From an uncultured Planctomycetota bacterium (GTDB taxonomy: Bacteria; Planctomycetota; Planctomycetia; Isosphaerales; Isosphaeraceae), in NCBI GenBank assembly GCA_963845755.1, contig CAWJTV010000034.1, positions 512,001 to 576,000 of the forward strand: a stretch of 64,000 nt of DNA, read 5' to 3'. Both the position numbers and the translations under genes were made by a program. Shown piece by piece: positions 8,328 through 33,773 of the stretch. Below the pieces are notes generated by a model that had not been told where the DNA came from, ran no database searches, and was given only the letters and a program-made list of their open reading frames with translations. How positions within the stretch are numbered: position 1 is the stretch's first letter; each line of letters starts with the position of its first letter.

Positions 8328-8630
8328 GGCTGATCCTCCTTTCCTTCCCGACCGACCGGCTGCTCGATTTGCGATGTTAAACACTCGCTGGATAATCTAC
8401 CCCTCTCAACGCCAGATCGCCATGGTCGCGCGGGCTGTTCGAGCCGCGTTTACTGGAAGGCAATCCAATCAGAGAAATCGATTCAAGTACCCCAATCACT
8501 ACAAGCTTGATATACGGATTATTTTCTCCAGATTGCCGATGGGTTCGTTCGGTTCGTTTGCTGCATCTTGTCATTGAAGCGACCTCACACCGAACTCCAA
8601 TCGTTAAATTTTGCCGGATCGATACAATCG

Positions 8631-8781
8631 TGGCTTCGTTTGATCGATTTTCCGCGTCGGTTTCGTTCGCGGACCCTGTGGTTGACCGTGGTGTCTGGCT
8701 TCGTTTGATTGATTTCGGATGCGCGCGTCATCCTCTTGCATCAATCCATGCGATAGTCCCTGGCTTCGTTTTGATGATTTC
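8631..8781. repeat. Three TGGCTTCGTTT(GATYGATTT) direct repeats with a 65-bp period
   Basis: Copies start at 8631, 8696, 8761; related variants at 8540-8560 and ~8658. Confidence 0.75.
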
Positions 8782-9454
8782 GCCATGCTGATCTCGCAGT
8801 CGTGATTTCCGGGTGTGGGCTGTCGATGAGGTGGGCGCGCACGATGACTTACAGATATTATGGGACACTTGAGCGTGCCTGGCCACGAATTCTGGAAGAA
8901 AAGTTGGCGGCGACCGGGTGTCGCCGAGGGCGAGTCGGGAAGATATACCTTTGAAGGTCAAGGGCCGCCGGCCGTGATGGCGGTATGGGAGGAGTTCCGC
9001 TCGAGGTGTGGGCTGGCCATCAGTGCAACGTCGAACCGGGCGGACAGCACGGCGAGCCGGTGGCCCAGGCATGGGCTCACGTCCTCGGCTCGCCATCTGA
9101 ACACCAGAGCAGGGGGAACGGCCGGCGGATCATGCCCTGCTGCGCCGATTATCACGCGGGTGATCTGCTCGCGGCCTTGGTCAGGTCCCGGGTGACCATC
9201 GGAAGCCGTAGAGAAGGCGCCCGCATCAGGGGTCTTCGTCCGCCGGAACAGGGAAGAGTGCAGAGGGGGTTCGGGGGAGAGGGGACGTGTCACGCGACAC
9301 CAAGTTGGATCGCGAAATCCCGACACCCGGTTTGATCGTACCTGCTCATCGGTGCGCGTTTATGGGTCGAAGGTGACAGTCGTTCAGGAGCGAAAAGGGC
9401 GGCAGCGTCAGAGCCGATCCAGCCCGCAGAGGGCCAGAGGCAACCCCTGTGGGT

Positions 9455-9695
9455 GCTTCGGTGTCGTCGGACGAATGGCACTAGCTTAAGCGTAACACTT
9501 TATGCCATTTGAGCTTAAGTGCGGATCTCCAGACATATTTTCAACGATTGTAGATATTCGCTTGTAATATTGATAGAGAGTTTAGCCTCAAATCAAGCCA
9601 CATGGACCCAACCTCATATCCTCCTGAATACTATTAATGGGCAAACCGTCGCGACACAACTCGTTTTCTGAAAACGAGTTACGCTTAAGCTAGTG
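9455..9695. repeat. Arm-core-arm unit 1 (core 9484-9690, 207 bp, flanked by TA); right arm split by intron, resumes 12134-12156
   Basis: ACGAATGGCAC TA GCTTAAGCGTAAC ... GTTACGCTTAAGC TA GTG|CCATTCGT. Confidence 0.9.
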
Positions 9696-12133
9696 ATGAG
9701 GTAGGCGGCCAGCCCCTTGATCTCAAGGGAATCCAACCGCCCCCTCCCGAACCGGACAGGCACGTTTTCGTGCATCCGGCTCTCCAGACACAGGATCTAC
9801 ATTTGTGTCACGGTCCAACCCGGTATGCCAGGTCCGCCAGTCGGAGGCCATCATATTCTCCTCGGTGGATCTTACGGTGGCACTCTCGGCAGACGGGCAC
9901 TTGCTTCCGGTTCTGGAGTCGCATCAGCCAGGCAAACCCACCGACAGGTTTGCCCTCCATCTTTCGGATGTGACGGACGTGGTGCATCTGCACCCCGACC
10001 GTTGTTTCGCAGATGATGCATGGGTGGTCCAGGCGGGACCTTGTCCGGAATCGGACGTGCATCTCCAGTGGGTCGGTTTGATCTCTTCCCGTTAGAAATG
10101 CCGTGGGGTTCCGGGTCCAGTCGGAGTTGGCTTTGAAGAAGGTGTTCCGTTCCTTCCCCTCGCCGTCTTTCCAGTTGAATTGCAGAGTGCGTCCGTGTTC
10201 GCAGAGGAGCTGCTTAACGGGCTTCTGCAACTTGTGGGCTAAGGTCTTCGCAAGTGACAAATGCAGGATGTACTGGATACGGCTCATGGAGGCGAAGTTG
10301 TCAGCAAACCTGTAGTAGTTCAACAGCCCCCAATTGGTGCTGTTGAACAGTTCGATGATGTGCTTCACCTCCAGGCAGACCCACGCTGTCTTGGATCGGG
10401 CGATGCCCTCACCGTCACAGAAGCCCTTCTGGTGAAGACGCTTGACCAGTTTCCTGATCGGCGCTCGCATCAGCGGGCTCCACCCCGTACACCGGCGCCG
10501 GTAGTGCCGCCGTTGGTTGTGGCAGTGGGTAACCTTGGGCTGTGGGTTGACGGCCCCCACCTGAAGCCGCGTCCCGAGAAAGAAGGCCTCCTCGGTCTTG
10601 GCGTGAGTGACGACCGTCTTTTCCTGGCTGAGTTGCAGTTTCAGCCTGTCCCATAGGAACGCCTGAATCTCGTCCTTGATCTGTTCGGCCAGGGACCTCG
10701 GCCCCGTGACGCCGACGATCCAATCGTCTGCATATCTGATGTATTTGACTCTGACGAAGCCAGGGTCAAACGTGTCCATCGACGGGAGAGATCGCATCTG
10801 TTTCGTCAAAGCGCGAATCTCCGGCGTCATGATCCCACCTGACCGTTTCAACGCTCGCTGCCTGCGATAGTTGATCCGGTGATACTCGGGGCTGTCCTTC
10901 CGCTTGCTGCCCTTCTCGTACTTCTGCTGTAGTCCCTCGACGAAGAGGTCGAGTTCGTGCAGGTAGATGTTGGCGAGGATAGGGCTGGCCACGCTCCCCT
11001 GCGGGGTCCCGATAAACGAGGCCCCCGGTTCCTTCCTCCATAGGTAGCCTGCCCGGAGTGCTTTCCAGATCAGGCCGATGAAGCGTTCGTCCGAGATCCT
11101 CTTCCGGATCAGGGAAACCAGGACGTGGTGATCGATCTCGTCGAAGCAGGATTTTATATCCCCTTCGATGATCCACGTCACACCAGACCACTTGGTCCTG
11201 AACTCATGCAGGGCCGTGTGAGTCCCTCGACCAGGCCGAAAACCATGGCTACAGTCGCTAAAGGTAGGCCCTTTCGGACTGTCGTAGATCGCTTCGAGGA
11301 TCACATGGATGACCTCTTGGACGATCTTGTCCCTTGGGGATGAGATGCCGAGAGGCCGCATCTTGCCATTTGCCTTGGGAATGTATTCCCGCCGCGAAGG
11401 CTTGAATTGGAAACCCTCGTCTCGCAGGGTCGCCACGATGTCGTCGATGGCATCCATGGAGAACCCATCGAGAGTCATCCCGTCGGTGCCAGGAGTCAAG
11501 TTCCCGGGAGCGGATTTGATTTTCTCATACGCGACGATGTAGAGATCCGTCTTGTAGAGGAGTCGATACAGATCCGCGTTGACCCAGTTGAGGTCCGTGT
11601 TGCACTTCCGCAGTGCTTCAAGCCTGAGTAGGGCTGAATGACTCATCCGAGTCACCCCGTTCTTGGTGAAGCCCTGTGTCCTGTCCCCCTTGGGCCGATG
11701 CCTACTACGGGGACTCTGTCGCCTTGGGCATTGCTGCCGTTAGGCGATCCCGTGGTTGTCGGTCAGGTCCGGTCCACGTTGAGGGCCTCCGTTCATCCCT
11801 TGCCCCTGCTCATTGCAGGGTGTGTCCTGCCGGAAGATCACGGAGGTGAATGGCATGCCCCCGTGAGACAGGAATCCGGGTTTCAGCGTCATTCCCGGCG
11901 GTGATCGAGCACACCCACTGGGACTGGAGTTCAAGCAATCCAGCCTTACCCATGCGTGGCCTAACTTGCGAACGTCTCTCGGCCCTTTGACGCTGGGCCT
12001 CACGTCGCTTCTTCCGCATGCTGTTGTCCCCTCGATCCTTTCGGTTGAAGGTCAGCGGAACGTTTGACCCGCCTTCTTCCAGCGGGGTCGGGGCACTCCC
12101 GACAAGACCAGACAAACCTTAGCCACGGCGCAC
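9696..12133 (-). mobile_element. Group II intron copy 1 (2438 nt)
   Basis: 5' GTGCG, 3' ...ACCTCAT, domain V GAGCCGGATGC...GTCCGGTTC, RT ORF. Confidence 0.95.
9808..11655 (-). CDS. Group II intron-encoded RT/maturase/HNH endonuclease (LtrA-like, 615 aa)
   Basis: YIPKANGKMRPLG, EGDIKSCFD, PQGS, YIRYADD; C-terminal CIIC...HHVRH...CRECH. Confidence 0.95.
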   Translation of the reverse strand: MTRMSHSALLRLEALRKCNTDLNWVNADLYRLLYKTDLYIVAYEKIKSAPGNLTPGTDGMTLDGFSMDAIDDIVATLRDEGFQFKPSRREYIPKANGKMRPLGISSPRDKIVQEVIHVILEAIYDSPKGPTFSDCSHGFRPGRGTHTALHEFRTKWSGVTWIIEGDIKSCFDEIDHHVLVSLIRKRISDERFIGLIWKALRAGYLWRKEPGASFIGTPQGSVASPILANIYLHELDLFVEGLQQKYEKGSKRKDSPEYHRINYRRQRALKRSGGIMTPEIRALTKQMRSLPSMDTFDPGFVRVKYIRYADDWIVGVTGPRSLAEQIKDEIQAFLWDRLKLQLSQEKTVVTHAKTEEAFFLGTRLQVGAVNPQPKVTHCHNQRRHYRRRCTGWSPLMRAPIRKLVKRLHQKGFCDGEGIARSKTAWVCLEVKHIIELFNSTNWGLLNYYRFADNFASMSRIQYILHLSLAKTLAHKLQKPVKQLLCEHGRTLQFNWKDGEGKERNTFFKANSDWTRNPTAFLTGRDQTDPLEMHVRFRTRSRLDHPCIICETTVGVQMHHVRHIRKMEGKPVGGFAWLMRLQNRKQVPVCRECHRKIHRGEYDGLRLADLAYRVGP

Positions 12134-12380
12134 CCATTCGTCGATCACACCGAGGCAAGCAAGCAGTAGAGGGATGACGATCTGCCTGGCTCCGCGCGGC
12201 GGTTGCGGCGCGGGGGCGTTCCGTTCACGATTGACCCGCCAGGTCTTCGGTCTCGCGTCCATCCTCGGATCCTCTCCTGTGGTAAGAAGAAGGATGACGA
12301 AGAGGCCGCCAGCCGGATACCCGGTCCTTCAATACCTGCAATTCGGTAGGATCAGGAGAATCGCAAGGGAGCCTCGCATC

Positions 12381-13163
12381 ATGAGCATCTTCGACCGATT
12401 CAAATTGACGGGAAAGCGTCTCTTCATCACGGGAGGTAGTCGCGGCTTGGGACGGGAGATGGCACTCGCGATCGCCGAGGCCGGCGCCGACGTGATCCTC
12501 GTTGGCCGCGACCCGGCAGGTTTGGAGAAGGCAGCCGGCGACATCCGCGCCCTGGGCCGCCAATGCTGGACCCTCGCGGCGGACGTCGGAAAGCCGGCCG
12601 AATGCGAAGAGGCGTGCCGGTTGGCTCTGGATCATCACGGCCCGATCGACATTCTGATCAACAACGTGGGCGGCCGGCACGAGAACATCCCCACGGAAGC
12701 GATGTCGCTCGACAAATGGCGCGAGCTGATCGACCTGAACCTCACCAGCTGCATGCAATGTACGAAATGGCTCGGCGCGGCGATGATCGAGCGCGGCGGG
12801 GGCGGGCGAATCATTAACATCGCTTCGATCAACGCGCTCGTGGCGGGGCGTGGCATCACGGGCCGGCACTACGAGACAGCGAAGGCGGCGATGCTTCAGT
12901 TCACCCGCGCGGTCGCGGCCGACTGGGCGGTGCACAAGATCACGGTAAACGCCATCCTGCCGGGCGGCTTCATGACAGAGGCGAACCAGCGCTGGTCCGA
13001 AATCCATCCGGAGGTGATCGAGCAGTTCCGCGCCAATATCCCGCTGGGCGATTTCGGCCAGCCGGAGGATCTTGGGCCGCTCGCGGTGTACCTGGCCAGC
13101 GACGCCTCGCGCTACATGACCGGGGCAGCCCTGGTGATCGACGGCGGGTACACGTTGTGGTAG
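12381..13163 (+). CDS. SDR family oxidoreductase
   Basis: TGGSRGLG, NNVG, YETAK catalytic motif, DGG C-terminus. Confidence 0.92.
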   Translation: MSIFDRFKLTGKRLFITGGSRGLGREMALAIAEAGADVILVGRDPAGLEKAAGDIRALGRQCWTLAADVGKPAECEEACRLALDHHGPIDILINNVGGRHENIPTEAMSLDKWRELIDLNLTSCMQCTKWLGAAMIERGGGGRIINIASINALVAGRGITGRHYETAKAAMLQFTRAVAADWAVHKITVNAILPGGFMTEANQRWSEIHPEVIEQFRANIPLGDFGQPEDLGPLAVYLASDASRYMTGAALVIDGGYTLW

Positions 13164-13215
13164 GAAGACTGACGCGGGAATGTGATCACGCCAGTCTCCT
13201 TGTCGAGGACTTGAA

Positions 13216-14035
13216 ATGAACGGACCCAGAACGGTCAGATCGTTCGTGTCAAGTAGCCCGGAGTATCATCGGGCATTCCAAGCGTTCCTGGCCCACACTG
13301 ACCAGAAGGACAAGGCCAGGGAGTGGATAAGGCACGAGGTCGACGGGCTCGCGAATCGGTCGGTCATGATTGACGCGGGCGCCGGCAGCGGGCGGCTCAC
13401 TTCGTGGCTCACTCCGCTGTTCGGGACTGTGATCGCCATCGAACCGAACCCCTCCATGGAGTCGGAGCTTCGGATCGCTTGCCCAGACGCGGTGGTGATC
13501 GCCGCCACGATCGCCTCGGCCTCACCGCCGACGGCAGGGGACTTCGTGCTGTGCTCGCACGTGTTCTATCACATCCCCCGGTCGCAGTGGGAAGCGACCT
13601 TGCTGCACTTGATGGGCTGGCTAGCTCCCGGGGGCGTTCTCGCCGTCGCGTTGCAGAACCCCCGTGCTGACTGCATGCGCATGGTCAACCATTTCCTCGG
13701 GGGCCGCCTCGATCTGAGCGAGCTTTGCCCGATGGCGAACGCAGAGGATGGTGAGTATGAGGCACGGCTGGAGACCGTTCCTGCTCACATTCGCGCGCCC
13801 GACCTCGGGACAGCCTGCGAGATCGCCGAATTCTTCCTGAATGACCTGCCCATGCCCGCGCCACCGAGGTGGGAGGACCTGGAGCATTACGTTGAACGAG
13901 CATTTCAAGCAGGCCGAAGGTGGTTACCAGCTCTCGTGTCATCAAGACTTCTTACGAGTCTCCAGATCGATTGGATCGCCTCTATCGGCGATAAGAGCGG
14001 ACCGTCCGCACGGGGCGCGGCGGTCGTCCCCTTGA
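13216..14035 (+). CDS. Class I SAM-dependent methyltransferase (frameshift near 13900)
   Basis: IDAGAGSG motif I, IEPN, LCSHVFYHI, LAPGG. Confidence 0.8.
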
Positions 14036-14224
14036 TCTGGGGGCGAGAGCTTCTGCGCCAAACGGTGCAGGGACTGGACCACCGTTCGGCTCGTCTCGGG
14101 AGGCCGACGGTTGATTGGCGGCTGGATGGACCGGACTATCTGGGTCTGGGACGCGACGCCGCTGCCGGAATAGCAGCGAGGGTGGGGACACTGTTCGCAG
14201 TCGTCCTCAATCGGCCGGCTCCGC

Positions 14225-14420
14225 CCGTGCAGACCTCACCTTCCTCGCGATGACGCGGCAGCGGTTCGGTCGGCCGCAAGAGGCCCGAGAGGGCCTCGAC
14301 CGCCTCCGGGAGAACCTGGAGGACCCAGCCCGCGCTAGATGGCGAGGCCCCGGGCTTCTTGCGCGAGGCCCGAGCGGTCTTTGCCGCTTCACGCCGTTGG
14401 CCTGCGAGCCACGCTGCTGA
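14225..14420 (+). pseudogene. C-terminal TPR-like fragment of a planctomycete kinase/WD40-type protein
   Basis: 'DLTFLAMTRQRFGRPQEAREGLDRLRE' resembles such C-termini; no N-terminus present. Confidence 0.4.
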
Positions 14421-14481
14421 ACGATCAGCCCGGCGTGCCGCGTCGCCGTGATCTCGCCGCCGTGGAGCGCCTTCCTTTTGC

Positions 14482-14746
14482 GCGCGTCGGTCCGACGACA
14501 CGAATGGCACTAGCCTAAGCGTAAGTCGCTGATACTAAGTGACTTGTGTCTGTGACGGTCGGGGTTCTTGCAGAGAATACCCGACTATGATCATGATTTG
14601 ACGATGGGCTAGCCGGGAAACCAAGGCCTCAGATGGAGCCCCTAGGAATCCGGTCCATGGATCAAGGAAGTCCATTGTTTGCAAGTTCAATTTCTGCCAG
14701 AGGTTGCGCTTATGCTAGTGCCATTCGTGTCGTCGGACCGACGCGC
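14482..14746. repeat. Arm-core-arm unit 2 (core 14513-14715, 203 bp)
   Basis: Perfect 33-bp inverted repeat 14482-14514 / 14714-14746 containing ACGAATGGCACTAGC. Confidence 0.9.
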
Positions 14747-14841
14747 AGAGAGCCGTTCCACAAGACGCCGGTGAATCCAGAACTAACCGCGTCCCTGTTC
14801 CCCTCCCTTGGATACAAATTCAAGAGGACTCGGTTTCACGC

Positions 14842-15470
14842 TCAAGCGAATCCCTTGTCTTTGAGCCACTTCTCAATCACAGATGGAAGGGTGGTGCCCG
14901 GGTTTCTCGTGTCGAAGGGCTTGTAGAGTTTGCCGTTCAGATCGGCTTGAAGGGTCTTGAGAGTCTTGTCCTTCAGCAGTAAGACCGGCTTGTTGAGGGC
15001 CATCATGTAGCCGACCTCTAGGCCGACATTGGGATTGAACTCCTCTTGCTCGATCCGATCGAAGATGGCGATGCCGAAGCCGCAGCCGTGCATGTAGGTC
15101 TTGATATTGGAGAAGGTGTCGTCGTCGTATTCCTTGTGATCGGCCCGCATGGCGGCAATTCCATGCTTTGCGGTCGTCTCCTGGATCACACGGACGATGT
15201 CACTGTGAGCGTCGGTCTCGGTGAACCGCATCATATGAAGGCGGCCTTGCGTGGGTCGGGATGCTCAGCCTGGAACGCCTGGAGGCTTTCTTGGATATCG
15301 GGCGGCAAAGATGGAAGGCTTGGCTTCGGCGGTAATGCTTTGCTTCTTCGTCCAGATGGGCGAGTCGAGACTGAACCTGGATCAGGCATCTCAACGAGCG
15401 CAGCACTCGAATAGTTCGCCAGGCGCCGCCCCTTTCCTTCGTCCCACACGCATTCAAGATTGCTAAACAT
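14842..15470 (-). CDS. Nucleoside 2-deoxyribosyltransferase-like / TIR-like domain protein (1-nt frameshift at ~15233)
   Basis: The two ORFs join as ...KAAFI-MMRF...; motifs RAD and NPNVGLEVGYMMALNKPVLLL. Confidence 0.6.
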
Positions 15471-15565
15471 TGAGTCTACTTGCGCAGTATGGGTAAGCTG
15501 GCCCCCCCCTCAGACTACGCAGTCCGCTTGGAATATTAGCAATATCCCTCGGCAAAGACGAGGAA

Positions 15566-16660
15566 TCAGCTCGAGCCGAGTCCCTCATACTCGGGGGATA
15601 GCCGGTAACTCCGCGACTTCCTGGCCGGGTCAACCACGAGCACGAACCCGCCGCTCACCCATGAAGAGAGGATGTTCCGGGCCGTCCTCTGGGAGACGCC
15701 GAAGAGGCCCTCGACGTCGCGGCTGGTGATGACGACCGAGCGGCGGAAGAGCTCCAGGGCCCGGCGCCGGCGGGGGTCGAGGCGACGCAGCGCGGCCGAG
15801 TCATCCCTCATGCCCCGGTCGGCGGCCTCCCGGGCGCGGCGGCGGACGCTCTCGAAGCTGTCGGCCATGCCCGCGCAGAAGTATTCGACCCACGCCGTGA
15901 TGTCCGCCTCGGCACGGCCCTGATAGTAATTGTGCGACGGCCCGACCGCCAATGCCCGGTAGTAGGCCGACAGGTCTCTGGCGTAGTATTCTTCCAGCGA
16001 ATAGAGCCCCTTCAGGTCGTACCCGCCCCGGTGGAGGATCAGGGTCGTCAGGAGCCTCGCCGTGCGGCCGTTGCCGTCGTAGTAGGGGTGGATCGTGGCG
16101 AACTGGTAGTGGGCGATCCCGGCGCGGATCGGGCACGGGACGCCCTCGTGCTCGCTGCGCCGGAGCCAGTCGACGAGCTCCTCCATGAGCCGGGGGACAT
16201 CCGATGCCTCCGGGGGCATGTAGACGATCCGACGGCTGCCGGCGTCGCGGATCACGTTCTGCCCGCCCCGGTATGGGGTGGGCTTCTTCACCGCCTTGCC
16301 GCTGGCCATCACGAGGGCGTGAAGGGTTCGGACCTGGAGGTCCGTCACGTCCCCTCCCTGGGCCGCGAATCGTTCGAGCCGCTCGATCGCCGCGTAGTAG
16401 CCGAGGACCTCGGCCTCGTCTCGCTCCCGGCCCGGGAAATGCCTCCCCTGCTCGATCAACGAGGAGACCTCCTCCCGAGCGAGGCGGTTGCCCTCGATCA
16501 TCGTGGAGTAGTGGGTGGAGAAGAGCCGCGCGGTCTCGCGGAGGCCGGCGAGCACGGAGGACGTGATCGGCAGGTCCTCCACGGCCTGCCGGGCCGCCTC
16601 GATCCTCATGAGGTGGGTCGCGGTGCGGGGCGTGATCCGGTAGTTGGGCTCGAACGGCAT
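15566..16660 (-). CDS. Fic family protein with C-terminal HTH
   Basis: STMIEGN, HPYYDGNGRTAR, C-terminal 'VSQRTARNILS'. Confidence 0.92.
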   Translation of the reverse strand: MPFEPNYRITPRTATHLMRIEAARQAVEDLPITSSVLAGLRETARLFSTHYSTMIEGNRLAREEVSSLIEQGRHFPGRERDEAEVLGYYAAIERLERFAAQGGDVTDLQVRTLHALVMASGKAVKKPTPYRGGQNVIRDAGSRRIVYMPPEASDVPRLMEELVDWLRRSEHEGVPCPIRAGIAHYQFATIHPYYDGNGRTARLLTTLILHRGGYDLKGLYSLEEYYARDLSAYYRALAVGPSHNYYQGRAEADITAWVEYFCAGMADSFESVRRRAREAADRGMRDDSAALRRLDPRRRRALELFRRSVVITSRDVEGLFGVSQRTARNILSSWVSGGFVLVVDPARKSRSYRLSPEYEGLGSS

Positions 16661-17005
16661 TCGGCGGCACTTTCTCGGTCGGTTTCCTTGCCGTTATTGT
16701 GCCGTTAAAGTGCCGATAAATCAAGCGATCGGTGTGGGTCGAGGTAGGCACTCTGCTCACAACCTGGGACGCGTATCTGGATTGCGGCGTCGCCGGCGAG
16801 GCGGCGGGGGGTGAACGCCGACATTGCGATTAGTCCGACGCTTGGGCGGTCTAGACAAGCGCATGTCCCGCCGGGCCGGCTCGATGGCCGCCCCGCCCCG
16901 GGCCCGGCCCGGCCGATCGCCGGACGGAGCCGGTTCGTCCAACAGACGGGGCGGAGTCGGGCCGGAGCCGGCGACGTTGCTTGCTTCGGTGGGATCGACG
17001 AATGG

Positions 17006-19443
17006 GTGCGCCGTGGCTAAGGTTTGTCTGGTCTTGTCGGGAGTGCCCCGACCCCGCTGGAAGAAGGCGGGTCAAACGTTCCGCTGACCTTCAACCGAAA
17101 GGATCGAGGGGACAACAGCATGCGGAAGAAGCGACGTGAGGCCCAGCGTCAAAGGGCCGAGAGACGTTCGCAAGTTAGGCCACGCATGGGTAAGGCTGGA
17201 TTGCTTGAACTCCAGTCCCAGTGGGTGTGCCCGATCACCGCCGGGAATGACGCTGAAACCCGGATTCCTGTCTCACGGGGGCATGCCATTCACCTCCGTG
17301 ATCTTCCGGCAGGACACACCCTGCAATGAGCAGGGGCAAGGGATGAACGGAGGCCCTCAACGTGGACCGGACCTGACCGACAACCACGGGATCGCCTAAC
17401 GGCAGCAATGCCCAAGGCGACAGAGTCCCCGTAGTAGGCATCGGCCCAAGGGGGACAGGACACAGGGCTTCACCAAGAAAGGGGTGACTCGGATGAGTCA
17501 TTCAGCCCTACTCAGGCTTGAAGCACTGCGGAAGTGCAACACGGACCTCAACTGGGTCAACGCGGATCTGTATCGACTCCTCTACAAGACGGATCTCTAC
17601 ATCGTCGCGTATGAGAAAATCAAATCCGCTCCCGGGAACTTGACTCCTGGCACCGACGGGATGACTCTCGATGGGTTCTCCATGGATGCCATCGACGACA
17701 TCGTGGCGACCCTGCGAGACGAGGGTTTCCAATTCAAGCCTTCGCGGCGGGAATACATTCCCAAGGCAAATGGCAAGATGCGGCCTCTCGGCATCTCATC
17801 CCCAAGGGACAAGATCGTCCAAGAGGTCATCCATGTGATCCTCGAAGCGATCTACGACAGTCCGAAAGGGCCTACCTTTAGCGACTGTAGCCATGGTTTT
17901 CGGCCTGGTCGAGGGACTCACACGGCCCTGCATGAGTTCAGGACCAAGTGGTCTGGTGTGACGTGGATCATCGAAGGGGATATAAAATCCTGCTTCGACG
18001 AGATCGATCACCACGTCCTGGTTTCCCTGATCCGGAAGAGGATCTCGGACGAACGCTTCATCGGCCTGATCTGGAAAGCACTCCGGGCAGGCTACCTATG
18101 GAGGAAGGAACCGGGGGCCTCGTTTATCGGGACCCCGCAGGGGAGCGTGGCCAGCCCTATCCTCGCCAACATCTACCTGCACGAACTCGACCTCTTCGTC
18201 GAGGGACTACAGCAGAAGTACGAGAAGGGCAGCAAGCGGAAGGACAGCCCCGAGTATCACCGGATCAACTATCGCAGGCAGCGAGCGTTGAAACGGTCAG
18301 GTGGGATCATGACGCCGGAGATTCGCGCTTTGACGAAACAGATGCGATCTCTCCCGTCGATGGACACGTTTGACCCTGGCTTCGTCAGAGTCAAATACAT
18401 CAGATATGCAGACGATTGGATCGTCGGCGTCACGGGGCCGAGGTCCCTGGCCGAACAGATCAAGGACGAGATTCAGGCGTTCCTATGGGACAGGCTGAAA
18501 CTGCAACTCAGCCAGGAAAAGACGGTCGTCACTCACGCCAAGACCGAGGAGGCCTTCTTTCTCGGGACGCGGCTTCAGGTGGGGGCCGTCAACCCACAGC
18601 CCAAGGTTACCCACTGCCACAACCAACGGCGGCACTACCGGCGCCGGTGTACGGGGTGGAGCCCGCTGATGCGAGCGCCGATCAGGAAACTGGTCAAGCG
18701 TCTTCACCAGAAGGGCTTCTGTGACGGTGAGGGCATCGCCCGATCCAAGACAGCGTGGGTCTGCCTGGAGGTGAAGCACATCATCGAACTGTTCAACAGC
18801 ACCAATTGGGGGCTGTTGAACTACTACAGGTTTGCTGACAACTTCGCCTCCATGAGCCGTATCCAGTACATCCTGCATTTGTCACTTGCGAAGACCTTAG
18901 CCCACAAGTTGCAGAAGCCCGTTAAGCAGCTCCTCTGCGAACACGGACGCACTCTGCAATTCAACTGGAAAGACGGCGAGGGGAAGGAACGGAACACCTT
19001 CTTCAAAGCCAACTCCGACTGGACCCGGAACCCCACGGCATTTCTAACGGGAAGAGATCAAACCGACCCACTGGAGATGCACGTCCGATTCCGGACAAGG
19101 TCCCGCCTGGACCACCCATGCATCATCTGCGAAACAACGGTCGGGGTGCAGATGCACCACGTCCGTCACATCCGAAAGATGGAGGGCAAACCTGTCGGTG
19201 GGTTTGCCTGGCTGATGCGACTCCAGAACCGGAAGCAAGTGCCCGTCTGCCGAGAGTGCCACCGTAAGATCCACCGAGGAGAATATGATGGCCTCCGACT
19301 GGCGGACCTGGCATACCGGGTTGGACCGTGACACAAATGTAGATCCTGTGTCTGGAGAGCCGGATGCACGAAAACGTGCCTGTCCGGTTCGGGAGGGGGC
19401 GGTTGGATTCCCTTGAGATCAAGGGGCTGGCCGCCTACCTCAT
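17006..19443 (+). mobile_element. Group II intron copy 2 (2438 nt), inverted relative to copy 1
   Basis: GTGCG at 17006; domain V at ~19358-19391; ends CAT 19443; I saw differences from copy 1 only at 17231 and 17480. Confidence 0.95.
17484..19331 (+). CDS. Group II intron-encoded RT/maturase/HNH endonuclease (identical protein to copy 1)
   Basis: Same 615-aa translation, YADD motif. Confidence 0.95.
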   Translation: MTRMSHSALLRLEALRKCNTDLNWVNADLYRLLYKTDLYIVAYEKIKSAPGNLTPGTDGMTLDGFSMDAIDDIVATLRDEGFQFKPSRREYIPKANGKMRPLGISSPRDKIVQEVIHVILEAIYDSPKGPTFSDCSHGFRPGRGTHTALHEFRTKWSGVTWIIEGDIKSCFDEIDHHVLVSLIRKRISDERFIGLIWKALRAGYLWRKEPGASFIGTPQGSVASPILANIYLHELDLFVEGLQQKYEKGSKRKDSPEYHRINYRRQRALKRSGGIMTPEIRALTKQMRSLPSMDTFDPGFVRVKYIRYADDWIVGVTGPRSLAEQIKDEIQAFLWDRLKLQLSQEKTVVTHAKTEEAFFLGTRLQVGAVNPQPKVTHCHNQRRHYRRRCTGWSPLMRAPIRKLVKRLHQKGFCDGEGIARSKTAWVCLEVKHIIELFNSTNWGLLNYYRFADNFASMSRIQYILHLSLAKTLAHKLQKPVKQLLCEHGRTLQFNWKDGEGKERNTFFKANSDWTRNPTAFLTGRDQTDPLEMHVRFRTRSRLDHPCIICETTVGVQMHHVRHIRKMEGKPVGGFAWLMRLQNRKQVPVCRECHRKIHRGEYDGLRLADLAYRVGP

Positions 19444-19683
19444 CACTAGCTTAAGCGTAACAGCTTATGCCATTGGAGTTTAGGCACGGGTCGTCAGGCA
19501 TATTTTCAGCGATTGCAAATATTCGCTTGTAATATTGATAGAGGATTTGGCCTCAATTCAAGCCACATGGACCCAGCCTTATATCCTCCTGAGTACTACT
19601 GATGGGATAAACATTGCGACGCAACTCATTTTCTAAAAAAGAGTTACGCTTAAGCTAGTGCCATTCGTGGGATCGACCGAAGC
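19444..19683. repeat. Arm-core-arm unit 3 (core 19449-19655, 207 bp); left arm split by intron, begins 16983-17005
   Basis: Core aligns without gaps to core 1 in the same orientation (about 85% identity by hand count). Confidence 0.9.
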
Positions 19684-19925
19684 ACCTTCGAAACATGCCT
19701 TGTGGCTGGACGCCACTCTGTGCGTCTGTCACCTTCGACTCGTGAACGGGCACCGATGAAGAGGTTCGATCAAACCGGGTGTCGGGATTTCGCGATCCAA
19801 CTTGGTGTCGCGTGACAGGACGCGTCTCCTCCGAAACTCATCACGAGCGCGGGCGAAGCCCGCCACCGCTGGCGTTGGCGCCTAGAGCGATTCACGCTTG
19901 GGTGGCTGACGGTCGGGGGACAGAG

Positions 19926-21328
19926 CCCCATACGAAACTGGTTAAGCCGCAATCCTTGGTGCGAACAGCAGTTGTCGCGTACTGGGGCGTTTCTTCCGTC
20001 GGCCACGCCGGGGCAAACGACTCAAGCGGACTCGCAGTTTCTCCAACACCCGCCGCAACCGCGCTGGGTCGCTCAGCGCCGCGGCGATTTGCAATGCCAG
20101 CCGCTTCACCCGCCGAGCCGCCCGGACCAGGCTGATCCCACACAGGGGCCCTCCGCGCAGCAGCGTCCCCCAGTGCTGCACCAGCATCCCCAACAGCTTG
20201 GCATACCTCTCGCACAACACCCGCTGGCCCCGCCGACCCCGCGTCCGGTCCACACCCCCTCCCGATTTCCACGCCTTATACAACAACTCCACCTGCCAGC
20301 GGACACGATAAAGCACGCAGATTTCTTCAATTGTCAACGTGCCCGCCGGCAAATCGGTGATCAGCACCGTCCCCTGGCACATCACGCGCTGGCGATCACT
20401 CAGCGTCTTCCCCTTCTTCCGCAGCTCCTTTCGCAGCCGACGCAATCGGATCTCGGCCACCTCCCGGGGCACCCGCAGGGCCACCAACCGACAGCCCAAG
20501 GTCGCCTTGGTCCCCAGGACGACCGTAGTGTCGATCCGACCCTCCGTTTGCCGATCCAACCACGCGCTGATATTGACCCCACCCGGCTCACCGGCTCGCA
20601 CTTTCAACTGCGCCGGGACGCGGCTGATAAAGTGAATCCCCTTCTGCTGATCGGCGGCCAGTCGTTCCAGGTCGAAAAAGCCCAGGTCGCACAACCGCAG
20701 GCTGTTGGCAGGTAAGGGCGCCAGCTCCTCGGCCAGGGTTCGCTCAGAATCGCGCGCCGGTGCCGGTGGCTGAATCTCCAAGCGGCCGGTGGTCACATCC
20801 CACCGCGTCAAGAGCTTCCATCCCGCTTGACCGCCTTGGGGATCAGAGCCACCACAGCCGGGGAAGGATCCGGCCAATTCGGCCGGCAACCCGACGATGG
20901 TGACGTCCTCGACGGAAACGGTCGCGAAGCGGCGCAACAGCGGAATCATCTCGGGCCGGGCCGCGAACAGCAGGTTCAACGCCTTCTCGAGCACCCGACG
21001 CAAACAGTCCGCGGCGCGGGCGTTGAAGCGTTCGTTGAAAGCCGCCTCGCTGATGTCGAGGTCTTCAATGATCTCCTCAATGGTGGCGTCGGGATTCTCC
21101 AGCCAATGAAAGACCAGGGCCTGGACGAATCGGGACCCGGTGAGCTTGCGCTGGCGCCGAATCATGCCGGAATCCTTGGCAGCCTCATCGGCGTCGGTGG
21201 TGAAGAGGGCTTGCAAGGCATCAGCCAGTTGATCGATCGTGATGGTCATCCGGTACTCCTCCGGTGCGGAAATACTGATCAAATGTATTGTACCAGAGGA
21301 GTTACTTCTTAACCAGTTTCTCATGGGG
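19926..21328 (-). mobile_element. IS4-family insertion sequence
   Basis: TIR CCCCAT(AC/GA)GAAACTGGTTAAG at both ends; no clear target duplication. Confidence 0.85.
19942..21249 (-). CDS. IS4-family DDE transposase
   Basis: DLGF motif and Y-R-E-K signature YRVRWQVELLYKAWKS. Confidence 0.9.
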   Translation of the reverse strand: MTITIDQLADALQALFTTDADEAAKDSGMIRRQRKLTGSRFVQALVFHWLENPDATIEEIIEDLDISEAAFNERFNARAADCLRRVLEKALNLLFAARPEMIPLLRRFATVSVEDVTIVGLPAELAGSFPGCGGSDPQGGQAGWKLLTRWDVTTGRLEIQPPAPARDSERTLAEELAPLPANSLRLCDLGFFDLERLAADQQKGIHFISRVPAQLKVRAGEPGGVNISAWLDRQTEGRIDTTVVLGTKATLGCRLVALRVPREVAEIRLRRLRKELRKKGKTLSDRQRVMCQGTVLITDLPAGTLTIEEICVLYRVRWQVELLYKAWKSGGGVDRTRGRRGQRVLCERYAKLLGMLVQHWGTLLRGGPLCGISLVRAARRVKRLALQIAAALSDPARLRRVLEKLRVRLSRLPRRGRRKKRPSTRQLLFAPRIAA

Positions 21329-21383: not shown

Positions 21384-22765
21384 TGTCACCCGACAGTAGG
21401 TTTTGCCGCGAATCCCGACAAAAAGGTTTTGCCGCCTCGTGGCGGGGGGTAGTCTGTGATGGTCCGATCCTGCCAACTCCTGCGAGGGTCACTATGCCCG
21501 CTCCACTCCCGCCGACAACCCGGCGCCTCATCTTGCTACGATCCCGTCGCGGCCAGACCGCGGCGGCCATCGCGGACGCCCTGCATCTCTGCCCCCGCAC
21601 GGTCCGGCACCTGCTCCAGCGGGCTCGCGACCCGGCGAGCCCTCAGGGGACCGCTTATCGGCCCGGTCCGGGGCGGCCCGCCGACGACCACCCGCTCCGA
21701 GCCCAGGCCCTGGCCCTGCGACAGCAGCATCCGACCTGGGGAGCGGGCTACATCCGCGTCCGCCTGGCCACCGAGGCCGACCCGGCGACGGTGCCTAGCG
21801 AGCGCGCACGTTGCGGCGCTGGTTCCGCCGCCAGCGGCACCCGCCTGCGGCGGGGGGACGGCGGTCGCCGTCGGCCGCCGACCGTGCCATCGCCCCGCAT
21901 GACATCTGGCAGAGGGACGCCGCGGAGCAACTCCGCACGGCCGACGGCCAGGGCGCTGCTGGCTGCGGCTGGTGGATGAATATACGGGGGCCTTCCTGGG
22001 CACCACGGTTTTCCCCCCACTACTACTGGGCCCACGTCCCCGAGGCCGAGGTGCAGCGGCACTTGCACCGCGCCTTCGAGCGGTGGGGGCTGCCGCGCCG
22101 CATGCGGGTCGATAACGGCAAGCCGTGGGGGTCCTGGAGCGACCTGCCCCCCGCGCTGGCGTTGTGGCTGATCGGCCTGGGGGTCGGCGTGATCTGGAAC
22201 GACCCGCGGCGGCCGCAACAGAACGGCGTGGTGGAGCGGTCGCAGGGGACGGCCAAGCGGTGGGCGGAGCCGCACGCCTGCGGCAACCCGGCGGAGCTGC
22301 AGGCCCGCCTGGACGCCGACGACCGGTTGCAGCGGGAGCGGTATCCCGTCGCCGGGGGACACAGCCGTTGGGAGCTGTTCCCGGGTCTGGCGCACAGCGG
22401 CCGCGCCTACCGCGAGGCGGACGAGGCCGGCGCGTGGTGCCGGGGGCGGGTGCGCGACCACCTAGCGGAGTGGGCCGTGCCGCGCCGGGTGGACAGCCAG
22501 GGAAAGGTGTCGATCTATAACAGGAATATCTATGTAGGAGTGTTATATGCGGGCCGGGACGTCTGGGTCCAGTTCGACCCGGGGCACGGCGAGTGGCTGA
22601 TCAACGACGGCGGGGGCCAGCAGCTGCGGGCCCGGCCGGCCCCCGAGATCGACGCGGAGTCGATCCGCGGGTTGCGATTGTCGGGACGGAAGTAGGGACC
22701 GCCGGGTGTCCATGCGGCAAAACCTTTATGTCGGGATTCGCGGCAAAACCTACTGTCGGGTGACA
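21384..22765 (+). mobile_element. IS481-like insertion sequence (TGT...ACA)
   Basis: 52-bp TIR with 1 mismatch; 5-bp GCCCC duplication (21379-21383 / 22766-22770). Confidence 0.88.
21494..22695 (+). CDS. IS481-like rve transposase (frameshifted)
   Basis: N-terminal HTH, HPTWGA, WQRD, RVDNG, PQQNGVVER. Confidence 0.8.
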
Positions 22766-31255: not shown

Positions 31256-32517
31256 TCAGAAGTAGACCTGGAACCGCAACCAATACAGATCGTTCGACTT
31301 CTGGAAGCCACCTGCGTTGTAGAAGACGGGGCTGCCGAACATGGCGTGCTCCCAGTCGAGGTAGACCTTGACGAACTTGTTGAGATACCAGTTGAAGCCG
31401 ACGTCGACCATCTGGGCGCGGTTGGTCCAGAGGTTCGGGTCGGCCAGCCCGCCGGTGAAGACCGACCGGCCCAGCGTCAGCTCGCTGTATCGGGCCGTCA
31501 TCTCAAGGGCCCCCAGGCCGAAGTGCCCCGGACGCAGGTCGAAGGGGCGCAGGGGATCGATCAGCGTCCGGTCGCGGATCGTCTCGCCGGTCAGGATGTA
31601 CCCGGCCTGGACGAAATAGCCGCTCGTCGGCACACGGACCGGCGGCGGCCCGGAGCTGCCCTGGGCGTAATCCTGGAACCCGCTGTCCCAGGCCCCCAGC
31701 AGGGAGAGGCCCTGATAGTAGTAGGCCATGTGCAGCTCCCAGAGGGCGCGATACCCGCCGCTCCATCACGCCGTTGTTGAAGGCCAGGAAGGGGACCTGC
31801 GCGGATCCCGGGCTCAGTGTCGAGGTGGCTGCCGGTGGCGCCGAGGTCGTCAAGACGGCCGGCGAGAGGGGATTGTTCTCGATCCCCGCGTCGACTGAGC
31901 CGCCGATCTGCAGGTTCTGCAGGAAGGAATCCGTCCACGGATCGAACGGCTTGAAGTTGAGGAAGGCCATGACATCCTGGTGGCTGCTGAAGTTCAAGTA
32001 CGAGTTCCGCTGCCCGTCGAAGGATCCGACGGCGTACTCCAGCCGTTTCTCGAACAGGCTCCCCCACCCCATGAAGCCGAAGCGGCGGTTGCCCTCGAAG
32101 TTGGTGGCGAACAGCGACCGCTCGGGGGCGAGCAGGTGCCAGACGTGGACTCGGTACCATTCATAGGTGAAGGGGGTCTTGTAGCGGCCGAGCCGGAGCT
32201 GGAACCCGTCGCTAAATCGGTAGTTGAGGTAGCTATCCAGCAGGTTGAGAGTGGCGTAGGTCTGCTGGAACGAGAACTCGTAGGAGATGGGCCGGATCAG
32301 GTTGCCTTCGAAGTAGAAGCGGGTCCGCGGGTTGAAGATGCCGCTGCTGGCGAATTCCTGGTTGGAGTTGGCATAGATCCGCGCGTCGAGCTGCTGGAGC
32401 GCGCGGACGCCGAAGGTGATCTCGTTGTCCTCGGTACCCCAGCGGAACCCGTCGTTGGCGAAGTCGTACGTTCCGCCCAGCAAGGGGATCCTGCCGCGCT
32501 GGCGATTGCCCACAAGC
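31256..32517 (-). pseudogene. OprO/OprP-like porin, 5' end removed at the IS630 junction (also frameshift ~31755)
   Basis: GRYKTPF, ERSL, GFNWYLN, C-terminal RFQVYF; no signal peptide before the IS end. Confidence 0.75.
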
Positions 32518-32519
32518 TA

Positions 32520-33745
32520 GTGCTTTGTCACAGCTAAAAATTGGGGTTGGGGAAACCTCCGCGACCGTGGATGATACGGGGAACAAGGAGGCCCCCATGA
32601 ACAAGAAGTACATTGTCCGGCTTACGGCTGAGGAACGGGACGAGTTGGCGGCCGTGATCAAGAAGTTGAAGGGAACCAGCGAGAAGGTTCGAACGCGCCC
32701 AGATCCTGTTCAAGGCCGATGCGGACGGTCCGAACTGGACCGATCGTCGCATCGCCGAGGCGTTCGGATGCCGAACGCAGACCGTCGAGAACATTCGTCA
32801 GCGTCTCGTGGAGTACGGCTTTCGAGAGGCATTGGACCGCAGCAGGCACAGATGCCGCCGGTCGAGAAGCGACTCAACGGCGAACAGGAGGCGAAGATCA
32901 TCGCCACACGGCTCGGGTCACCGCCCCCGGGTTATGCCAACTGGACGCTGCGGCTCTTAGCTCGAAAGGTGGTGGAACTGGGGATCGTCGAAACCGTCAG
33001 TTACGAGACGGTGCGGCGGACTCTGAAAAAAAAACGGGATGACCAACCGCAAGATCGAGTACTGGGTCATCCCGCCCGAGGCTGACGGTGAGTTCGTGGC
33101 CCACATGGAAGAGGTGCTGGAGACCTACGCCAAGCCTTACGACTCGATGCGGCCGATCCTGTCCATGGACGAACAGCCGGTGCAATTGCTGAAGGAGTCC
33201 CGCGTGCCGATCCCTGCCACGCGCCGACACGCCAAGCGCGTCAACTACGAATACGAGCGTGCCGGGACGGCGAACATCTTTATGTTCACCGAGCCGCTGG
33301 CGGGCTGGCGCGAGGTGGCCGTCCGGGATACCAAGACCGAAGGTTGACTGGGCGATCGAGATGGCCGCGCTGTTGGAGGGCCGTTATGCCAGTGCCGAGC
33401 GAGTGATCGTGGTATGCGACAACTTGAACACGCACACCAAGGGTGCCTTCTACGAAGTCTTTGCACCGCCCCGTGCTCGCCAGTTGGTCCGCCGCATCGA
33501 GTTCTGCTACACCCCCAAGCACGGCAGTTGGCTGAACATCGCCGAGAACGAGCTCAGCTCGTTGACGCGGCAGTGTATAGCCGGCCGCCGCTTCGGTGAT
33601 GCCCAGGCGCTGCGCGAGTGGAGACCACCGCTTGGTCAACCGACGTCAACAGCACCCAGCGCGGAGTGGATTGGCAGATGAAGATCGACGATGCCCGCTC
33701 CAAATTGAAGTCGATCTACCCCAAAATTAAGCTGTGACAGAGCAC
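32520..33745 (+). mobile_element. IS630-family insertion sequence
   Basis: TIR GTGCT(T/C)TGTCACAGCT; TA duplication at 32518-19 and 33746-47. Confidence 0.9.
32597..33737 (+). CDS. IS630-family transposase (A-run at ~33026-33034 plus extra frameshifts)
   Basis: WTLRLLA, MDE, CDNLNTH, TPKHGSWLNIAENE. Confidence 0.85.
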
Positions 33746-33773
33746 TAGTGCCATTCGTCGGATCGACCGAAGC
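33746..33773. repeat. Isolated right 'arm' (TA GTGCCATTCGT-N7-ACCGAAGC)
   Basis: Near-identical to 19656-19683. Confidence 0.9.

Follow-up and report, generated by a model that had tools for sequence, protein, structure and literature searches.

The 64-kb window analyzed here (contig CAWJTV010000034.1 of an uncultured Isosphaeraceae planctomycete; coordinates count from the first base of the window) contains a 10,530-bp transposon at 9288-19817, which we regard as a genuine but defective representative of a family of composite transposons that is apparently undescribed. No description of such a composite was found in the searched literature, which excluded most subscription papers. The family is probably organized in three tiers: an IS481-like insertion sequence (IS), an enzyme-less unit with IS66-type ends that the IS captured once, and cassettes placed at two types of site. 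Sequence comparison yielded the identity of the ends, the anatomy of the partner elements, an 8-bp duplication around the inner unit, a clade of IS-linked arms, the borders of the cargo and an empty target. The host assembly comprises 14.3 Mb in 49 contigs, with a GC content of 64% and 88% completeness.

We provide a putative history of this family. An IS481-like IS of ~1.39 kb would land in intergenic repeats with G/C stems. An enzyme-less, IS66-ended unit would have entered this IS once, between the transposase stop codon and the right inverted repeat (IRR), with the duplication of 8 bp, and the IS would thereby have become a unit transposon with the inner unit as its passenger. Between the arms of the inner unit, cassettes would be swapped or stacked at two sites, a and b. 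The arms were presumably moved by an IS66-type enzyme, and the sites may be served by a site-specific, probably tyrosine, recombinase. In the window copy, the left inverted repeat (IRL) and the transposase end appear to have been replaced later by an IRR-type end, by a presumed route that is weighed below. Because this copy has no transposase of its own, it should move only when the enzyme is supplied in trans.

The window element, its ends and its target

The terminal inverted repeats (TIRs) are perfect over exactly 51 bp (9288-9338 on the forward strand and 19767-19817 on the reverse strand) and, like those of the IS481 family, have TGT...ACA ends. A rough estimate gives a probability of 1e-20 that 11 kb would contain such a perfect inverted pair of 51 bp by chance. 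Each TIR contains two repeats of ~20 bp that start 26 bp apart and are 16/20 identical; these are likely binding sites of the transposase. Bases 52-95 from the two ends are identical at 36 of 44 positions. The initial annotation had described these paired repeats and the perfect TIRs, together with ~40 bp of further inner similarity, an exact GGACG duplication and a hairpin formed by the rejoined flanks, and our data agreed with each of these observations; the hairpin folds at -12.8 kcal/mol (DNA parameters, no shuffle control). However, the inner similarity is not the body of a MITE (miniature inverted-repeat transposable element), as had been supposed, but consists of 13 bp of the IS right end followed by the terminal repeat of the inner unit. 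On the left side, these 13 bp (9339..9351, forward strand) are 12/13 identical to the native IRR of locus L032 (L, C and G numbers denote loci, contigs and genomes), and their last 8 bp are one copy of the inner-unit duplication.

GGACG lies directly outside both TIRs (9283-9287 and 19818-19822), in a G/C-stem repeat, and the two flanks of the element are the two halves of one dispersed repeat. Unbroken copies of this repeat contain a single GGACG in L071 (genome G015) and L072 (genome G085) and a close variant of it in L073 (genome G107) and L075 (the same genome as the window); at a fifth locus, L074, only the left flank was matched. The four unbroken copies are paralogous repeats of the target rather than the orthologous locus, which was not found in an empty state in 120 other family genomes. 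The empty site with a single GGACG that the initial annotation had proposed as a check was thus recovered in paralogous form. Because the unbroken copies join both flanks through one GGACG, we consider GGACG to be the true target duplication of a single TGT...ACA transposon-type insertion.

When 22 unique flanks were compared, 18-19 of them had G at each of the positions -14 to -11, and GGGG occurred within -17 to -7 in 13, compared with 3.3% of random positions. These flanks indicate that the outer family inserts into G/C-stem intergenic repeats. An IS481-family element that targets repetitive extragenic palindromic (REP) sequences has been published for Pseudomonas fluorescens SBW25 (PMC11708052).

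The outer insertion sequence, its partners and the inner unit

The 51-bp end was found five times in the genome, twice in the window and once each on contigs C10, C29 and C45. The plain IS, without the inner unit, is 1,386 bp long in three copies in genome G021 and 1,389 bp long in L066, and a native IRR fragment, also without the inner unit, is present in L032. The parent IS of ~1.39 kb has 51-bp TIRs, a transposase with a helix-turn-helix (HTH) and an integrase-type DDE domain, and duplications of 4-5 bp.

Ends identical to the 51 bp of the window copy also bound complete partners, that is, the kind of autonomous partner that the initial annotation had suggested looking for. L039 and L041 (6,990 bp each) are 99.8% alike and have different flanks, L033 is 8,862 bp long, and L035 is the same element as L039/L041, interrupted by a contig end. 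The partners share the order IRL, transposase, R arm, site b, cargo, site a, L arm and IRR, and L039 encodes one IS-type transposase gene, an extracytoplasmic function (ECF) sigma factor and a kinase. The IRL half is seen in L027 and L038, which have the same flank, and in L037; part of the transposase is lost in L026, L034 and C45. C10 and C45 jointly and contiguously match L033 across a contig gap (segments of 89-96%). Their target differs from that of L033 and is a REP-like repeat with a 5-bp duplication; when this site was rejoined, 102 of its 137 BLAST hits extended across the junction. Over 8.8 kb, C29 is 93.5% identical to the cargo of L034, and the second end of this copy was not found in the assembly. 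From these partners, we consider the parent of the window element to be an autonomous 7-9-kb transposon. The proposed kinship of the window element holds for an IS481-like origin but not for the Mu/Tn7/Tn5053 kind, since the partner encodes a single transposase, of the IS type. Nearly the same ends were found in eight metagenome loci and in 4 of 120 other family genomes, and the named records with identical ends are Planctomycetota and Isosphaeraceae bins. The left end had no match in plasmids.

The best NCBIfam model for both halves of the transposase was that of IS481 (NF033577), with NF033594 scoring lower. D, D and E motifs are visible in the partner transposase, and its annotated plasmid matches belong to the IS481 family, at ~28-30% identity over most of orfB. 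The two halves are offset in frame at a T4-C6 run in the same manner in six composite copies and the three G021 copies, and L066 has the same offset. Because the offset is kept across divergent family members (L039:49-1380 and its relatives), it suggests programmed recoding or slippage. We call the outer element IS481-like and do not place it as a member of the IS481 family. Duplications of 4-5 bp were found in three of five single-record composites (5 bp in the window, 4 bp in L033 and 5 bp in L026) and in C10/C45, and duplications of 5 bp in two of four plain IS copies. The genome also contains five copies of a sister IS481-like IS whose ends differ, one of which (1,382 bp) lies at window 21384-22765. 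Each of the five is flanked by a 5-bp duplication at the same position of the REP-like repeat that is also hit by C10/C45, and several contain extra frame breaks.

The inner unit is bounded by two arms. In the window, the L arm (9352..9470, forward strand) is an IS66-like terminus that ends in site a, and the R arm (19669..19753, reverse strand) includes site b (19669-19675). In the native IS of L032, one 8-mer lies between the transposase stop codon and the IRR; in the composites, the same 8-mer flanks the arms on both sides. Because the 8-mer is single in the native IS and doubled around the arms, the inner unit appears to have inserted between the stop codon and the IRR. Arms free of the IS were also found many times, both in the window genome and in related genomes. 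The consensus of the arms starts with GTAC[G/C]CG, with GTAA variants present, and the same 11 bases end IS66-type elements of the window genome; 10 of 41 genomic matches to the first 11 bases of the arm face an IS66 transposase hit within 3 kb (~0.7% expected). Published IS66-family termini begin with GTAAGCG or GTAACCG (PMC12888890). IS66-family transposition generates an 8-bp target duplication; when the 8 flank bases of 18 facing arm pairs were compared, three pairs matched at 8/8, two at 7/8, one at 6/8 and the other twelve at no more than 5/8. One of the five pairs at 7-8/8 is the IS-embedded case, and only 1 of 306 cross pairs reached at least 7.

In trees of the arms, which left out partial and low-scoring arms, all IS-linked rows, including both window arms, fall on one side of a supported branch (R arms, 7/22 rows, support 99/97; L arms, 9/37 rows, support 98/90). 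Because the IS-linked arms form one clade, a single capture of the inner unit by the IS is the simplest reading. The arm motif was absent from viral contigs (0 matches), and the L arm was found in 0 of 400 phylum genomes, with two candidates scored per genome. An exact-motif scan of the arms also returned bins labelled Gemmataceae, Gemmatales, Acidobacteriota and Acidimicrobiales, which may be mis-binned. Additionally, a distinct family of elements of 195-675 bp with arm-like, IS66-like ends and no visible duplications was noted at C11:1000649-1000843, C28:386194-386661, C40:54053-54520 and C11:657068-657742 (G000). The element at L149:529-618, only 90 bp long, has an internal hairpin and an arm-like terminus at either end and may be an inner unit of minimal size. 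In L144, an arm-like motif without sites abuts a recombinase gene, and in L145 an L arm with site a lies, once, ahead of a recombinase open reading frame (ORF).

Sites, cassettes and junction modules

The two sites, which we describe as lox-like, consist of inverted half-sites around an asymmetric spacer, of 8 bp in site a and 7 bp in site b. They are abundant in the window genome, many of them away from arms and in arrays. A search of 120 other family genomes recovered an exact a site in 26 of them, and the controls gave no match. In relatives, conservation ends ~13 bp inside the sites, and beyond this point the cargo differs among elements; versions with other cargo, which the initial annotation had suggested looking for, are therefore present. 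Cassette 1 of the window is 96% identical in genome G107, where it has its borders exactly at both spacers and unrelated flanks. Of 114 site-bounded segments, 97 are co-oriented, although site b could be oriented with little certainty and the longer segments may include some that are not cassettes. With the same weakness of the b calls, cargo lies most often a-to-b (36/75) and short linkers b-to-a (13/20). Junction modules, which separate the cassettes of the window, stand between direct copies of one site type in 14 of 19 cases. The junction palindrome is itself a cassette-like module. A junction module is missing at the first site of most relatives, and an insert-free junction palindrome was not found among the sequences examined.

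In the window, the array starts with site a at the end of the L arm (8-bp spacer, 9463-9470, forward strand). Junction module J1 (9471..12141) has palindromic ends, an AT-rich insert of ~217 bp (9479-9695) and the first copy of a group II intron (9696..12133, reverse strand), whose ORF at 9808-11655 encodes reverse transcriptase (RT), maturase and HNH domains. Cassette 1 (12142..14499, forward strand) extends from site b (12142-12148) to site a (14492-14499), the reverse of the usual arrangement, and contains ORFs for an SDR oxidoreductase (~12381-13163) and an S-adenosylmethionine (SAM) methyltransferase (13216-14253). It is followed by junction module J2 (14500..14728), with an insert of ~213 bp (14508-14720), and by cassette 2 (14729..16997, reverse strand), which extends from site a (14729-14736) to site b (16991-16997) and contains ORFs for a Fic protein (15566-16660) and, weakly and below the cut-off, a nucleoside-deoxyribosyltransferase-like protein (14842-15234). 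Junction module J3 (16998..19668) is flanked by two identical direct b spacers and includes the second intron copy (17006..19443, forward strand; ORF 17484-19331, two differences from copy 1) and an insert of ~217 bp (19444-19660). Scanning the inner ORFs returned the RT of the group II intron (one of the two copies), the SDR protein, the methyltransferase, the Fic protein and the weak nucleoside-deoxyribosyltransferase-like ORF; no transposase gene was among them, in accordance with the earlier description of a transposase-less element carrying an array.

A single flip of cassette 1 between the inverted halves of J1 and J2 would leave the whole window array co-oriented. The two inverted intron copies enclose 4.8 kb, which they could invert by homologous recombination; copies of this intron, full, interrupted or partial, occur on about ten contigs. 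Among the relatives, the cargo frequently includes an ECF sigma factor, a Ser/Thr kinase that has WD40 or TPR repeats, or both (by Pfam in L005, L026 and L039; by eye in L033, L043 and L048), and other cargo includes an esterase, DUF1800/DUF1501 and more. The tyrosine recombinase profile PF00589 had 43 matches in the genome overall and no hit inside the element (C34:521288-531817), the scanned inner ORFs likewise included no IntI-type tyrosine recombinase, and neither the genome profile search nor the inspected loci revealed the cassette recombinase. Public sequencing runs contained at most 0.16 of the sampled words, and their contigs were short pieces from other organisms, in which no inversion or excision was seen. 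When the PDB was searched by sequence, the sole match was short and propeller-like, and we judged it irrelevant.

An element that by eye looks like IS630 lies between CTAG motifs at window 32516-33770, directly next to a site b and one half of a junction module, and a degenerate site b with a junction end lies near window 28809. In L001:6260-8119, a 1.8-kb IS4-family element at CTAG replaces the ~215-bp insert of a junction module and is a candidate mover of such inserts.

Origin of the window copy, alternative explanations and known systems

Among 22 unique ends, 7 join the IRL to the transposase start, 12 join the IRR to the L arm, 2 are native IRRs and 1 joins the IRR to the R arm. The last is the right end of the window element, where an IRR-type linker of 13 bp (19754..19766, reverse strand) stands in the place in which relatives carry the IRL and the 1.3-kb transposase gene. 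This linker matches the native IRR at 11/13 bases, the IRL at 6/13 and the transposase 3′ end at 1/13. Because it resembles the IRR and neither the IRL nor the transposase 3′ end, we interpret the right end as an end replacement and not a plain deletion. The identity of the linker rules out a simple deletion from the IRL, and the position of the window R arm in the IS-linked clade rules out an independent insertion of a cassette unit in the opposite orientation.

Several observations weigh against the three-tier reconstruction. When scanned separately, the transposase halves scored 56 and 42 bits against an NF033577 cut-off of 224, below the family threshold. L039, L041 and L066 have no target duplication, possibly owing to collapsed assemblies; in L039 and L041, one flank is joined to opposite ends, as expected of such a collapse. 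An intact cognate transposase was not found in the 88%-complete assembly, whose sole remnant of it is on C45, where the 51-bp end is followed by the 5′ 147 codons of an HTH protein. For the inner unit, 12 of the 18 facing arm pairs match at no more than 5/8 flank bases, perhaps because arms have been re-assorted at the sites, and no IS66-type pair among those picked for flank comparison had a duplication. Nor was a transposase of the inner unit seen in the inspected loci, in which most ORFs were judged by eye or clustering. Clustering of 37 loci gave neither an autonomous inner unit nor a linked recombinase, and eight inspected regions near tyrosine recombinases or arm-like motifs showed no consistent recombinase link. 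Reads spanning the stretch were not found in public runs. Finally, the IRR-R arm junction at the right end of the window copy is the only one among the 22 ends, so that no second copy attests movement of the double-IRR form.

This single occurrence would also fit a loss of the transposase in place, in which an autonomous composite inserted and generated the duplication, its IRL and transposase were then swapped for an IRR-type end by gene conversion or recombination (with exchanges within the identical 51 bp and in the first bases of the arm, one in each), and the transposase-less form never moved. Since IRL and IRR share the same 51 bp, the flanks and the duplication would survive such a swap, and C45, L026 and L034 have likewise lost parts of the transposase. 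However, the TIRs and the duplication show no mismatch, whereas 3 of the 13 bases differ between the right and left linkers, and an old junction with a newer insertion fits this contrast slightly better; we regard loss in place as unlikely, although it deserves serious attention. We give distinctly less weight to the idea that the inner transposon uses sites a and b for resolution or in an accessory role, with cargo acquired by ordinary transposition or homologous exchange. The sites do lie at a fixed distance inside the arms, as resolution sites can, and no recombinase was found, but many sites lie away from arms and in arrays, most segments are co-oriented, most junction modules stand between direct sites of one type, and cassette 1 is shared with exact site borders.

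The initial annotation had favored a near-palindromic MITE of ~350 bp, with the junction palindrome at its center, that was later loaded with cargo. Both ends of the window element are indeed IRR-type and similar over 95 bp, and the arms plus one palindrome would total about 355 bp. Nevertheless, no empty ~350-bp version was found in the genome (5 ends), the 120 family genomes, the GTDB scan or the metagenome scan, and none is among the 22 unique ends. Moreover, arms occur without TIRs many times, the junction palindrome was seen only with an insert among the sequences examined, and relatives carry a transposase and cassettes without a junction module at site a. With an autonomous 7-9-kb transposon as the apparent parent, the MITE model is largely refuted and very improbable, and a size of 10,530 bp without an empty multicopy form rules out the MITE class for the window element. 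Still less credible is a chance placement of unrelated IS ends around the array with a coincidental GGACG. Solo ends do exist (C29), but unbroken repeats join both flanks through one GGACG or its close variant, and both window arms belong to the IS-linked clade.

The three-tier composite shares features with several known systems. With the IS481 family, it has in common the TGT...ACA ends, the HTH and integrase-type DDE transposase, a short duplication and palindromic-repeat targets, whereas its transposase is split by a frame offset, it carries a cassette unit, and in the window copy the transposase is absent and both ends are of the IRR type. IS481-family elements generally have one unbroken transposase ORF, from which the two-frame gene of the composite departs. 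Such a single uninterrupted ORF is described for IS481EU, and IS481 target duplications are given as 2-15 bp, mostly 6, a range that includes the 4-5 bp observed here (PMC10045372). The IS1202 family, with its ISAba32 subgroup and pdif modules, likewise shows TGT ends, a 5-bp duplication and site arrays that bound modules (bioRxiv 2022.12.17.520857). However, ISAba32 inserts beside xrs sites, 5-6 bp away, and these elements have a single transposase of 400-500 aa with Q seven residues after the catalytic E (bioRxiv 2022.12.17.520857), whereas the IS here encloses the array, targets G/C-stem repeats and has a two-frame transposase without Q. The lack of Q in a two-frame transposase, the G-run REP-like flanks and the ranking of NF033594 below NF033577 rule out membership in IS1202/ISAba32. 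Sites a and b bear no resemblance to the dif consensus. IS66 passenger elements (tIS66, e.g., ISPa75) have similar termini with passenger DNA between the ends (PMC12888890), but every copy of the inner unit that was seen lacks a transposase, and the unit contains sites of a recombination type at which cargo can be exchanged.

A transposon shell around a site-specific cassette platform is also found in Tn402, defective class 1 integron transposons and integrons flanked by MITEs or integron mobilization units (IMUs), and Tn402-type elements resemble the present family in that many copies lack transposition genes and depend on an enzyme in trans (PMC3575428). The element differs from MITE- and IMU-flanked integrons in that its flanks are single IS ends and not two complete MITEs (PMC3575428). 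It has no tni module, no intI and different sites, its shell is a single-gene IS, and two site types bound the cargo; the tniA/B/Q/R module of Tn402/Tn5053 is absent in the complete partner L039. The comparison with Tn402 made in the initial annotation therefore applies to function and not to parts. Heterospecific exchange with Cre/lox and Flp/FRT likewise uses inverted half-sites around an asymmetric spacer, with cargo between one site of each type. In contrast, the sites described here form a natural dispersed system with two spacers of unequal length, and their enzyme was not found.

The capture of an integron by Tn402 is the textbook event behind mobile gene capture, and the composite appears to follow this logic a second time, separately and from parts that are not related. 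The intermediates are still readable, as plain IS, free cassette unit, composite and defective composite. We tentatively speculate, at somewhat less than even confidence, that soil planctomycetes independently evolved an equivalent of the mobile integron, in which a two-site exchange platform on IS66-type ends was captured once by a repeat-targeting IS481-like transposon and now disperses multi-gene cassettes, for signalling and for enzymes, among intergenic sites that are safe, served in trans by an undescribed recombinase that accepts two spacer lengths. Each ingredient alone is already known, namely an IS481 element that targets REP sequences, a passenger-carrying IS and a defective transposon. 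The ends, the sites and the complete partner are concrete substrates for finding the cassette recombinase, an enzyme that could itself be a natural tool for dual-site exchange. The composite may also help to explain the movement of ECF sigma factor and Ser/Thr kinase modules among very large planctomycete genomes.

Next to the element in the window, an IS4-family transposase gene lies directly to the right (19942-21324), and three 23-bp repeats with a spacing of exactly 65 bp lie to the left (8630-8782).

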